A DNA stretch of 64,000 nt. Source: Escherichia phage C6. Below, in pieces: positions 9,504-44,536 of this stretch. Numbering within the stretch: position 1 is the stretch's first letter; each line of letters starts with the position of its first letter. The stretch lies in sequence record MW679410.1; one strand, written 5' to 3'. The notes under the pieces were generated by a model. That model was given only the letters and a program-made list of their open reading frames with translations, was not told the origin of the DNA and did not search any database. Made by a program: the position numbers and the translations under genes.

Positions 9504-9511
<8 letters not shown>

Positions 9512-10265
9512 TTTTATTTCCTAATAATTTATCAATAGTAGTGTATAGTTCAGAAAGAGTGCCGTTATTTTCAACAACAACGTCACCAGGTAAAATTGGT
9601 AGACCCGCTTCAGTGATGTGCGAGTCTTGTACTTGACCGGTTTCAGAGCGAACCACATGAATAATCGTAGCACCCATCGCTCTGAGCGAATCAATTTCGT
9701 GTGTTTGACGAACATCAGGTACGACATAGTATTTCGCATCAGAGTATATTTTATCAAAATAGTCTAAAGCGAACAACTTAACCCAATACATCTTATCAAA
9801 TTGGTTAACAATAATATCAGTCCCAAGGGTCTGCATGAGACGACGTACTGACCAATTGTTATTTTTATTTATTACTTCAAACAGTTGGTCTTTTGTTTCT
9901 TCAGACAGATACTGGACTGGGGTAAGACCATAATGATATGCGGTACGAACATCCATTCCTGGAATAGGAAGGATATTATTCAGTTTGACAATAGCATTTT
10001 CAAAGATATCAATCACATCATATGGTTTTAAAGGAAGGATTTCTTCACGGTCGTAACCTATACCTTCAAAACAGTTAAAATCGAGTTTAGGCATATAACT
10101 ACGGTCGAATACAGGGTCATCAGAGATGTATTCATAAGCTTCAGCCAGATACTTTTTAATAGGACCTGCGAGCTGAAATTTTACCGAATCCATATTTTCG
10201 ATTACATAGTTAGCAACGGTATCCTTACCGCTACGTTTGATTCCTACAATTGATATTAGTTTCAT
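9504..10265 (-). CDS. 1: gp1 deoxynucleoside monophosphate kinase
   Basis: P-loop GIKRSGKDT near N-terminus; size and synteny. Confidence 0.9.
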
Positions 10266-10855
10266 TATTTTCTCATAGATGGATGCATAGACATACGAGC
10301 CACTCGTTGTTCGGCATACGAATCAATTTGTGGACGACCTGTAACTATTGTACCATCTATTTCTACAGCAAACGATTTGAAGTTGAATGTTGCTGTGGCA
10401 ATTATCGCTGGGTCAGAATCCTCTTTATAAGAGTACTGGATTTCCGAGAGGTCGGATGGCCAACCACCGTAGTAATGAATGCTCATTACTATTTTCTGTT
10501 TGTTGTTATCAAGGATGTGGAGGGTGATAGCTTCTGGTTGACCTTTAGGATGCCAGGCTTCTGAATCATGGGTTACGTAGTTGTTTAATGACAACATCCA
10601 CTTATAAACGTCAAGCCATGATTTCAATTCACGGTCTACAAGAAAGTTCACAATCAATGGGTCGAATTCTACAGTAGAACCTGGAAGCTTAGCACGATGT
10701 ATACCCTGGGTCGATCCTGGGACGTCTGAGATCGGAATATGGATACCAGGTAGTGTTACATCTTGCACGTTCAATTTGAATGCCTGCGTCATTCCTGCAT
10801 CACTAACCTCTAAGATAAAGTTGGTGGTGTTAGTTTGGTTAAATAAACCGTTCAT
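10265..10855 (-). CDS. 3: gp3 tail completion / tail tube terminator protein
   Basis: Synteny between gene 1 and gene 2; size. Confidence 0.7.
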   Translation of the reverse strand: MNGLFNQTNTTNFILEVSDAGMTQAFKLNVQDVTLPGIHIPISDVPGSTQGIHRAKLPGSTVEFDPLIVNFLVDRELKSWLDVYKWMLSLNNYVTHDSEAWHPKGQPEAITLHILDNNKQKIVMSIHYYGGWPSDLSEIQYSYKEDSDPAIIATATFNFKSFAVEIDGTIVTGRPQIDSYAEQRVARMSMHPSMRK

Positions 10856-10868
10856 AGGATTCCTATAT

Positions 10869-10894
10869 TGCTTAAGTCCCAGACAGTGTATAAT
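10869..10894 (+). promoter_or_regulatory. middle-promoter-like element: MotA box TGCTTAA, 13 nt, extended -10 TGTATAAT
   Basis: Read on plus strand between gp3 start and HNH gene end; points antisense into HNH gene. Confidence 0.35.
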
Positions 10895-10937
10895 GGTCCT
10901 AGGTCTGTTCCATTCAATAACTGGCTGGGATAATAGA

Positions 10938-11588
10938 TTATTTTATAAATTCACGTAGTCTTACTGGTGTCATAAAAGGCCATTTGGCTATAGTTGGTTT
11001 TATCCAGTATCTTTCGTGACATGTAGCTTTAAATGCCCGAACCATATCTTTGGCCTCTTCTATAGTATCCACACCAAATTGTTCACAAGTTTCCTTTCTG
11101 GCTTTATCCCATCTCCTTTTAGAAAGCTCTGATTGGAGTTCTTTATTGGCAAAATGGCCATTATTCCTATTATGAGTGGTTCCTTTTGTAGGACTCCATC
11201 CTCGTCCCTTTACAAATCCTTCAGGAATCGGTTCACCCGGAAACAGCTTAATACACTTCTTGCCATTATTATAATAAACCTTTCCTGTTTGGGTTGCCGT
11301 GATATTCTCAGAGTGCTTACGTTTAAGCCAGCCGTAAAGCTTATTATAACGACGAGGGCCTTGAGTCATTGTCATAGCTGCAAAAGTTAGACCAGGATGT
11401 CCTGGATGCATTTTAACTAATAGTTGATGTGCTAAATAATGTTCTTCAGGAGTTAAATCAACTAAGTTTGTAGATTCATCACCTCCACCCATACATCTAG
11501 GTAAAATATGATGAGATTCGGTATAACAGGATAGTGCTCGTCCTTGAGCACGTGTAATTAATGAAGAATATATTTTCTGGTAATTCAT
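10938..11588 (-). CDS. HNH-family homing endonuclease (free-standing, inserted between genes 3 and 2)
   Basis: Motif SHHILPRCMGGGDESTNLVDLTPEEHYLAH (H-H...N...H); not part of T4 3-2 junction as recalled; start moved to ATG 11588 overlapping gp2 stop. Confidence 0.75.
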   Translation of the reverse strand: MNYQKIYSSLITRAQGRALSCYTESHHILPRCMGGGDESTNLVDLTPEEHYLAHQLLVKMHPGHPGLTFAAMTMTQGPRRYNKLYGWLKRKHSENITATQTGKVYYNNGKKCIKLFPGEPIPEGFVKGRGWSPTKGTTHNRNNGHFANKELQSELSKRRWDKARKETCEQFGVDTIEEAKDMVRAFKATCHERYWIKPTIAKWPFMTPVRLREFIK

Positions 11589-12424
11589 TATGCATTCTTC
11601 CAAACTTTCTGAGCTGAGTAACGCTTGCCTTTCGATACAAATTGCTGAAGTGGTAATCCTATTACATTAGCCCAATCAGCAGGTTTTATCTCTACTAAAG
11701 GTCCTTTAATATTTCCAGGGATATAAGCCTTAATCATCACGTCGGCTCCAGCGAATCCTTTTACCTTACTCCAATCGATTTTTAATTTAGTCGAGTTCGT
11801 AATGGTAGGCGTACTCGCGTATTGCTTCAGCAATTCTTCCAGAAATTGTTGGCGTGCTTTAGGCGGGATATAGTGTAAGTTCAGCCCGTACATTAAATTA
11901 TGCTTACCTAACCCAAGATAAATGATTAAAGGATATTTGTCCCAGTATGGTAGGGTATCCTTATGTTTGGCATCATAGATATAAGCATAAAGCTTACCGG
12001 GAGATGGTTTAGATACCTGGTGTCCACGAATTCCTTTCTTTAATGTTTCTGTAAACCATTTAGCTGATTTATTGTTTACAGCGGCGCCTTCGTTAGCAAT
12101 CTTATCACGAATACTCTTTCTAAAACTATTCACCAAAATTAATTGGCGTTCGGCTTTGGTTAATTTATTGCCAGGTTTATTCTGAAGTTTTTCAACCTGT
12201 ACAGCAGTTTTAATTCGACTCGAATATCGAGACATCGCAGATGTAAAGCTAGAATATTTAATGCCTTTATCTTCAGCGAATTTCTTAGCCGAGACACCTT
12301 TAGCCTTAGCTTTAGCGTATTCAACACCTAAAGCTATCCATTGTTGTTCTGAACGGGTAGGCTTGGAACCCTTTGTGGTTTCAGTAGCCTCATTGATGTA
12401 GGAAAATATACTCATCCTTTCCAT
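11588..12424 (-). CDS. 2: gp2 DNA end protector protein
   Basis: Size and synteny. Confidence 0.85.
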
Positions 12425-12861
12425 CCTAATTTTTTCAGTGAATGTTCGGTAATCAATCTAAAGGTGATACCCATTTTATCTGCTGTAGCTTTAGCTGCTT
12501 TCCACTTATCAGTATTAACAGACCAAGTATAATGTTCGTTGATATATCTCTTTTTAGCAGCTGTAGTCATTTTAACAGGCACCGCAGGAGCATGGGTTTC
12601 TTTAAAAGGTTTGACTTCAAAAAAGAATTGTTGGCCTGTATCAAATTTAACCCAGAAGTCCATAAAATATCGTCTTTTCTTTCCTTCGGCATTGCAAAAG
12701 TATGGGATAACCACCTCTTCTGAATTCCACTGGACTACATTAGGATGGTTGTCAAGCCAACGCATAAACCATGCTTCCCAAGAGGAACGATATTGGATTT
12801 TCTTCCAATCACCTTTATATTTTTGTAAGTTTGTAGGTTTAAATTTCCCTGAGTAAGCCAT
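12412..12861 (-). CDS. 4: gp4 head completion protein
   Basis: Size and synteny; divergent from gene 53. Confidence 0.85.
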
Positions 12862-12872
12862 AGTTGCCTCCT

Positions 12873-12895
12873 TATAAATATTAATATTATTTATA
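12873..12895. promoter_or_regulatory. divergent late promoters: TATAAATA plus strand 12873-12880 (gene 53), TATAAATA minus strand 12888-12895 (gene 4)
   Basis: Two exact TATAAATA boxes back to back, each about 27 nt from its ATG. Confidence 0.65.
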
Positions 12896-44510: not shown

Positions 44511-44536
44511 ATTATAACACACCTAAATTTAAAGCA
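44511..44536 (-). promoter_or_regulatory. middle-type promoter: MotA box TGCTTTA, 13 nt, TATAAT
   Basis: Read on minus strand upstream of rnlB. Confidence 0.45.

Follow-up and report, generated by a model that had tools for sequence, protein, structure and literature searches.

A Mob-type homing endonuclease cassette beside a conserved candidate middle promoter at the gene 2/gene 3 junction of a Dhakavirus

Background

Between genes 3 and 2 of Escherichia phage C6 (sequence record MW679410.1) an open reading frame (ORF) with an HNH motif lies next to a promoter-like element on the opposite strand, and the question raised by this locus is whether the two belong to a single mobile unit or are features of separate origin. 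The window referred to below is the entire stretch of 64,000 nucleotides (nt) that was analyzed, and coordinates are those of the window unless another genome is named. By sequence comparison this region is that of a Dhakavirus, i.e. a JS98/QL01-like, T4-type phage, and across a 2.3-kb query around the locus Salmonella phage SHP1 and Escherichia phages 04086, QL01 and E33 all show 97% identity. A first-pass annotation had read the ORF as a mobile homing endonuclease insertion and had proposed that the opposing element, with its resemblance to MotA-dependent middle promoters, would either damp endonuclease expression by antisense transcription or be a relic carried along with the insertion. Our analysis confirms the observation of both the ORF and the promoter-like motif and supports this interpretation in part: with good confidence we read the locus as a Mob-type HNH homing endonuclease cassette beside a separate MotA-type middle promoter of the phage backbone. 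The endonuclease is a further member of the Mob-like selfish genes, for which sister genomes already have an annotation, and the antisense promoter-like element is an old backbone feature conserved from T4 to the Acinetobacter phages; if active, it would mean that one of the most thoroughly studied phages makes a conserved, non-coding transcript at middle times.

An insertion at the gene 2 stop codon

The mechanically called ORF occupies 10938..11603 on the minus strand with a TTG start, and it was this TTG that had supplied the end of the span 10866-11603 given in the first-pass annotation. The ORF itself stands, while its start is better placed at the ATG annotated in relatives (11588-11586), which yields a coding sequence of 216 amino acids (aa) at 10938..11588 with a TAA stop at 10940-10938. 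Its upstream neighbor is gene 2, encoding the DNA end protector (11588..12424), and its downstream neighbor is gene 3, encoding the tail completion or sheath stabilizer protein (10265..10855), both on the minus strand and identified from the ORF list and the annotation of relatives. As had been noticed earlier, the start codon overlaps the gene 2 stop (11590-11588): the two share one A, and the minus strand reads TAATG at 11586..11590.

Comparison of this junction among relatives revealed that empty alleles are common. Ten of the 87 matching phage records are filled, with QL01, E33, SHP1 and dhabil among the filled close relatives, and about 45 Dhakavirus records are empty by exactly 650 bp (e.g. 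vB_EcoM_005, IME08 and Bp7) or 647 bp (JS98, IME341 and IME281), the empty records spanning 1651 or 1653-1654 bp against the 2301-bp query. Relative to the 650-bp type the insert corresponds to 10938..11587 on the minus strand; the three-base difference arises as the JS98 type retains a second TAA. Filled junctions read CATAA/TG...AAATAA/TCTATT and empty ones CATAATCTATT (vB_EcoM_005) or CATAATAATCTATT (JS98). The cassette comprises the ORF alone, placed precisely at the stop codon of gene 2. An earlier suspicion of ours that vB_EcoM_005 represents a secondary 653-bp loss allele was dropped, since a recount gave the two ordinary empty forms, 650 and 647 bp shorter.

The bases directly following the gene 2 stop, at the insertion site (window 11586-11590), vary by small indels among the empty genomes (L009, L013, L017, L018 and L045). 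Besides the CATAATCTATT form, shared by vB_EcoM_005 and IME08, and the CATAATAATCTATT form of JS98, they include a TAATCT duplication (L013) and a 9-nt TCTTCTTAA repeat (L017). Such variants could be target-site variants or repair scars.

A Mob-type HNH endonuclease

Profile searches with the HNH protein recovered PHROG 655, described as 'homing endonuclease', over residues 1-193 (2e-55), and its N-terminal domain of about 100 residues matches T4 MobE (46% identity over 101 aa, E-value 1e-28) and T4 MobA (48% identity over the first 86 aa, E-value 2e-21). Across 44 aligned homologs E24, H26, H27, P30, C32, G35, N41, E49, H50 and H54 are invariant, so the H-N-H spacing (H26/H27, N41, H50 and H54) seen in the first pass is kept in 44 of 44, and at the level of the motif this stretch aligns residue for residue with the HNH motif of EcoKMcrA (McrA). 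In an AlphaFold2 model (predicted local distance difference test score 88.8) Foldseek ranks HNH domains highest, with E-values that are not significant. The 1456 homologs recovered at E-values of 1e-10 or below carry varied C-terminal modules, and modular C-terminal design is usual for homing endonucleases; the full-length architecture combined with the gene 2/gene 3 location is confined to about 25 clusters, or roughly 90 phage records. On these grounds the gene is to all appearance an ordinary Mob-type free-standing HNH homing endonuclease, selfish and mobile. It is nothing new in kind, being already annotated as 'homing endonuclease' in QL01, dhabil and Kosakonia phage 305. The first-pass view of a mobile insertion is thus borne out by a gene of the T4 Mob family, a promoter-less cassette and many close relatives with an empty site.

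Full-length orthologs occupy the same junction in Kosakonia phage 305 (Kanagawavirus; 80% aa identity), Tequatrovirus e11/2 (62%), locus L016 of a third group (62%), and Serratia phage SP1 and locus L022 (51%). Both states of the junction are present in three of these other groups, namely Kosakonia phage 305 versus L017-19, L016 versus L014/15, and e11/2 versus T4. The gene 2/gene 3 junction therefore turns out to be an apparently recurrent homing site in several genera. Within Dhakavirus, synonymous divergence between the window and QL01 is 0.037 for the HNH gene compared to 0.147 for gene 3, 0.185 for gene 2 and 0.50 for gene 4, which suggests that the two cassettes share a more recent ancestor than their flanks do and fits a recent transfer or conversion.

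Alternatively, the gene might have been domesticated, i.e. vertically inherited for a benefit to the phage such as exclusion of competitors or DNA processing, and often lost by deletion. In line with this, the identity of the HNH protein tracks that of gene product 2 (gp2) across phages (79.6 and 82.4%, respectively, in Kosakonia phage 305, 61.6 and 68.5% in e11/2, and 50.7 and 59.6% in SP1); both junctions carry short direct repeats, ATAA/TAAT, through which a precise deletion could occur; and the ratio of nonsynonymous to synonymous substitution rates (dN/dS) of the HNH gene, about 0.07 against dhabil and Kosakonia phage 305, is as low as that of its essential neighbors and equals that of gp2. 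The latter value indicates that the protein is under selection and kept functional. Nevertheless, both filled and empty alleles are found among backbones of 96-97% identity, the cassette shows several-fold less synonymous divergence than its flanks between the window and QL01, and the architecture is the same as that of the proven mobile T4 mobE (PMC2988022). The two views also overlap, as a marker-exclusion benefit is thought to be how free-standing homing endonucleases persist. We accordingly regard domestication as unlikely. Three results count against the mobile endonuclease that we favor: a Pfam search with the HNH protein gave no match to an HNH model, solved structures gave no significant match to it, and between genera the gene diverges in step with its flanks, which fits long residence and vertical descent as well as repeated homing. 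The cassette has probably cycled for long within lineages rather than jumping between genera.

Two further observations concern the neighborhood of the site. In e11/2 (L006, 1460-1510) the last gene 2 codons beside the cassette are recoded relative to the empty T4 (L005), from TCAAATATCTAA to AGCAATGTACGATGA. Recoding of this kind can protect a filled allele from its own nuclease; the Dhakavirus genomes are without it. In some phages that we infer to be PM2-like and CC31-like, and in L037 (L020, L023, L024 and L037, positions ~515-955), the stretch upstream of gene 4, on the side facing gene 53, holds another Mob-like HNH gene, which shares 42-55% identity with the N-terminal domain. With HNH genes near gene 4 too, the gene 53-4-2-3 neighborhood looks like a hot spot for homing endonucleases.

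Expression of the cassette

Gene 4 (12412-12861) precedes gene 2 on the minus strand, and genes 53 and then 5 follow from 12908 on the plus strand. A divergent pair of late promoters separates them, with TATAAATA at 12888-12895 on the minus strand upstream of gene 4 and at 12873-12880 on the plus strand for gene 53. Apart from the former, no late promoter precedes the HNH gene on its strand, and the interval from gene 4 to gene 3 contains no TATAAATA. This points to a late operon 4-2-HNH-3 in which the cassette would be without a promoter of its own; the gene would thus be transcribed late, from the promoter at 12888-12895. The TAATG overlap suggests translational coupling to gene 2, and termination of gene 2 translation would allow a low level of HNH translation. 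T4 mobE, with a UAAUGA overlap, is likewise promoter-less, as are six other seg and mob cassettes (Edgell, Gibb and Belfort review, PMC2988022). By analogy with T4 MobE and the Seg enzymes, the enzyme would nick or cut a related phage's empty allele in a mixed infection; repair templated by the filled allele would then transfer the cassette along with nearby markers.

Within the coding region of the HNH gene, at 11392-11405, both strands show a short inverted repeat rich in G and C, CCAGGATGTCCTGG, with a T-rich tail after it. Such repeats are in the chance range (4 found against 2.9 expected); T4 mobE also has an internal terminator. At the other end of the cluster the late gene 3 overlaps gene 1 (dNMP kinase; 9504-10265, minus strand), the stop of the one coinciding with the start of the other at 10265. 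In T4, gene 1 is an early/middle gene. A search of the minus strand across gene 3 and directly upstream of it turned up neither a MotA-type nor a strong sigma-70-type promoter.

A MotA-type motif in the phage backbone

Spacer sequence of 82 nt (10856..10937) separates gene 3 from the cassette, and the promoter-like motif lies within it on the plus strand. It consists of a MotA-box-like TATTGCTTAA at 10866..10875 and a -10 hexamer TATAAT at 10889..10894, beginning 44 nt past the HNH stop codon on the opposite strand. The MotA consensus is (a/t)(a/t)(a/t)TGCTT(t/c)A positioned 11-13 bp upstream of a sigma-70-type -10 TAnnnT (quoted in PMC1524935), and TATTGCTTAA-N13-TATAAT (10866-10894) fits it. 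The motif reported in the first pass is present at 10869-10894, although its spacing, '13 nt-TGTATAAT', mixes two counts: TGCTTAA (10869-10875) is followed by 13 nt and TATAAT or, equivalently, by 11 nt and TGTATAAT. The TG of the motif is one base off the position of an extended -10. From this layout transcription is predicted to start at about 10901-10902 and to proceed in the direction of increasing coordinates, which makes it antisense to the HNH gene, gene 2 and gene 4.

Taken singly, the match is not significant, as the window holds 10 instances of the loose pattern TGCTTNA-N11-13-TANNNT where 3.25 are expected; the site becomes significant by its conservation in other genomes. A relaxed core lies upstream of 6 of the 89 TATAAT sites in the window, of which that at 10889-10894 is the only one on the plus strand, and 10866-10894 is the only MotA-type site on the 'late' strand of the window. 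MotA itself is encoded by the Dhakavirus genomes EcWhh-1 and KIT01 (50% identical to T4 MotA), and similar boxes precede minus-strand genes elsewhere in the window. A strong MotA-type site at 44511-44536 (minus strand, TGCTTTA-N13-TATAAT) lies 86 nt upstream of a minus-strand ORF of 335 aa inside a mainly plus-strand late region; judged from its size, this ORF is probably rnlB.

The spacer belongs to the backbone, with or without the insert. It is 98.8% identical to the window in QL01 and dhabil, 92.9% in the empty JS98, and 83.7% in Kosakonia phage 305, against 67-77% in the flanking genes of the latter. Since the motif lies outside the 650-bp insert, the same spacer is found in the empty JS98, IME08 and vB_EcoM_005, and the motif is also conserved in T4, RB69 and other genera without the insert, the idea of a relic carried with the mobile element falls. 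T4 has AATGCTTTA-N13-TATAAT (TATAATGG) at the orthologous site, on the same strand at about 75,968-75,993, and RB69 has CGCTTTA-N12-TATAATGG, also on the same strand. In most of 38 IMG/VR loci fetched via gp3, (T/C)GCT(T/A) is seen 12-14 nt upstream of a perfect TATAAT and antisense to genes 2 and 3; with T4 and RB69 added, these loci stand for about 13 lineages, including phages like CC31, S16, PM2 and Acinetobacter phages 133, Acj61 and Ac42 (inferred names). The (T/C)GCT(T/A) core keeps the same distance from TATAAT in about 13 lineages, and the hexamer is invariant in all lineages that have the spacer.

Among nine lineage representatives the MotA box carries 1.35 bits per column (2.0 in its GCT core) and the -10 hexamer 2.0 bits, compared to 0.53 bits in the spacer between them and about 0.5 bits in the outer flanks, a profile with the shape expected of a promoter. 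An independent line of evidence comes from the computational list of Nolan et al. 2006, whose Additional file 4 includes the predicted RB69 middle promoter Pm:79256 (plus strand, 79256-79296, score 16.3). This falls exactly between RB69 gene 3 (78666-79250) and gene 2 (79353-80174) and, among the RB69 plus-strand predictions, is the only strong one, the others scoring 8.1 or less. The only plus-strand predicted middle promoter of Aeromonas phage 44RR, which we had considered as a further case at gene 3/gene 2, lies in gene 51. Taken together, the motif is most likely a conserved MotA/AsiA-dependent middle promoter of the backbone that points against genes 2 and 3.

A promoter of this kind would start a non-coding transcript near 10901 that is antisense to gene 2 and, in filled genomes, first crosses the HNH gene. 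It might then be supposed that the promoter was recruited or maintained for control of the endonuclease, with antisense RNA at middle times silencing premature HNH expression. In favor of this, the predicted transcript of a filled genome would run antisense to the HNH gene for its first 650 nt, and T4 homing endonucleases are subject to several layers of control (PMC2988022). However, the element is equally conserved in many genomes and genera that lack the insert and so cannot have evolved for the endonuclease, and the HNH gene is in a late operon, with which antisense RNA of middle times would barely overlap. We consider this explanation very unlikely. Because the promoter is older than the insertion, whatever damping of the endonuclease it might cause would be incidental, no more than a side effect.

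Hairpins in the spacer and the case for the sense strand

The spacer has other features that could account for its conservation. An imperfect inverted repeat, CCCAGACAGT ... ACTGGCTGGG, at 10877..10930 encloses the -10 hexamer and can fold as a hairpin in the sense late mRNA; in Dhakavirus this hairpin has a folding energy of -22.2 kcal/mol (z -2.46). It might be that the plus-strand motif is no promoter and owes its conservation to such a hairpin, stabilizing or processing the sense late mRNA, together with the translation initiation region of gene 3. The spacer of every lineage indeed has a hairpin, and those of T4 and RB69 are more stable as sense than as antisense RNA (-23.2 versus -19.4 and -26.0 versus -23.5 kcal/mol, respectively), with the T4 sense fold using G-U pairs. 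The box is situated 10-17 nt upstream of the gene 3 Shine-Dalgarno sequence, and in Serratia-type phages a terminator-like hairpin replaces the region. Yet the hairpins differ in sequence and are not homologous, and their arms also differ in position relative to TATAAT: those of Dhakavirus enclose the -10, whereas T4, RB69 and the CC31-like and S16-like phages have a CTTCC...GGAAG stem just downstream of it. One arm position is A-T in Dhakavirus and G-C in Kanagawavirus. As the hairpins are not positionally homologous, the RNAalifold consensus across genera is weak (-1.8 kcal/mol). On the other hand, GCT and TATAAT fixed at 12-14 nt with a free spacer is the profile of a promoter and not of a helix, and the high score of the RB69 site came from an independent promoter model. 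A purely sense-strand origin of the conservation thus seems rather doubtful to us. An Rfam search gave no match in 10200-12000.

A number of points nevertheless weigh against the middle promoter that we prefer. In the sense mRNA the conserved bases coincide with the hairpin and with sequence preceding the ribosome-binding site of gene 3; constraints from these could contribute to the conservation, and part of it may serve the late mRNA. Downstream of the motif there is no conserved plus-strand ORF or terminator, an ATG seen there in T4 being absent in RB69 and Dhakavirus. In Serratia-type spacers (L022, L043, L044 and L007/SP1) the place of the MotA-type motif is taken by a GC-rich hairpin with a T run behind it, sense-oriented and resembling a terminator, and at least one of these phages, Serratia phage PS2 (L043), encodes MotA. 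The GenBank and RefSeq records of T4 have no regulatory feature at the orthologous site, and some close matches to the consensus in T4 are reportedly silent (Stoskiene et al. 2007). In the literature searched we found no experimentally mapped T4 promoter or antisense RNA at the orthologous site; a T4 differential RNA sequencing preprint reports 22 antisense start sites (bioRxiv 10.1101/2024.04.04.588121). The promoter is computationally listed for RB69 only, and otherwise no functional description of it was found in that literature.

As to what a backbone middle promoter would do here, it points to the strand switch between genes 4 and 53, about 2 kb away, which coincides with the minimum of the cumulative GC skew. 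The element could therefore be an uncharacterized functional part of the backbone, furnishing either a regulatory antisense RNA directed at the 3' portion of the late 4-2-3 operon or an R-loop primer or origin-like transcript towards the strand switch, in which case insertion of the cassette just downstream of the start would alter what the transcript covers. As a specific proposal we hold this to be improbable, and an origin-like or antisense-regulatory role of the promoter is possible but unsupported.

Comparison with known systems

The closest known counterpart of the cassette is T4 MobE, a free-standing HNH homing endonuclease encoded between nrdA and nrdB and variably present among relatives (PMC2988022). 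The two have in common the N-terminal HNH domain, the promoter-less state, the one-base UAAUG overlap and variable presence. They differ in that the C-terminal half of the HNH protein (residues ~100-216) is unrelated to MobE, which has 141 aa, and in that the gene resides at gene 2/gene 3 in a late virion operon and not in the nrd operon; nicking or cutting is, for the present protein, a prediction. A similar kinship links it to MobA and the PHROG 655 family through the matches given above, while its full-length architecture and gene 2/gene 3 site, found in about 25 clusters, set it apart from the wider family.

For the promoter, the nearest likeness is RB69 Pm:79256, which occupies the orthologous gene 3/gene 2 spacer on the same strand and in the same layout, CGCTTTA-N12-TATAATGG. 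That promoter is a computational entry in a supplementary list, and we found no discussion of its antisense orientation or cross-genus conservation in the text of the paper (PMC1524935). At the level of function, MotA-dependent middle promoters are found near late genes at T4 oriF (uvsY) and oriG (gene 34), and the oriF transcript is shown to serve as an R-loop primer, beyond any role as mRNA (PMC3016281). An origin of this type combines a middle promoter with a DNA-unwinding element downstream of it. T4 oriE, oriF and oriG lie near switches of the transcribed strand, and no middle promoter is known near oriE (PMC3016281). In T4, oriE is inside gene 5 and lies about 3.4 kb from the orthologous promoter site. 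The likeness of the present locus to oriF and oriG is confined to the promoter part and is circumstantial: as at those origins, a predicted middle promoter lies close, here about 2 kb, to a strand switch, that of genes 4 and 53, and to the GC-skew minimum.

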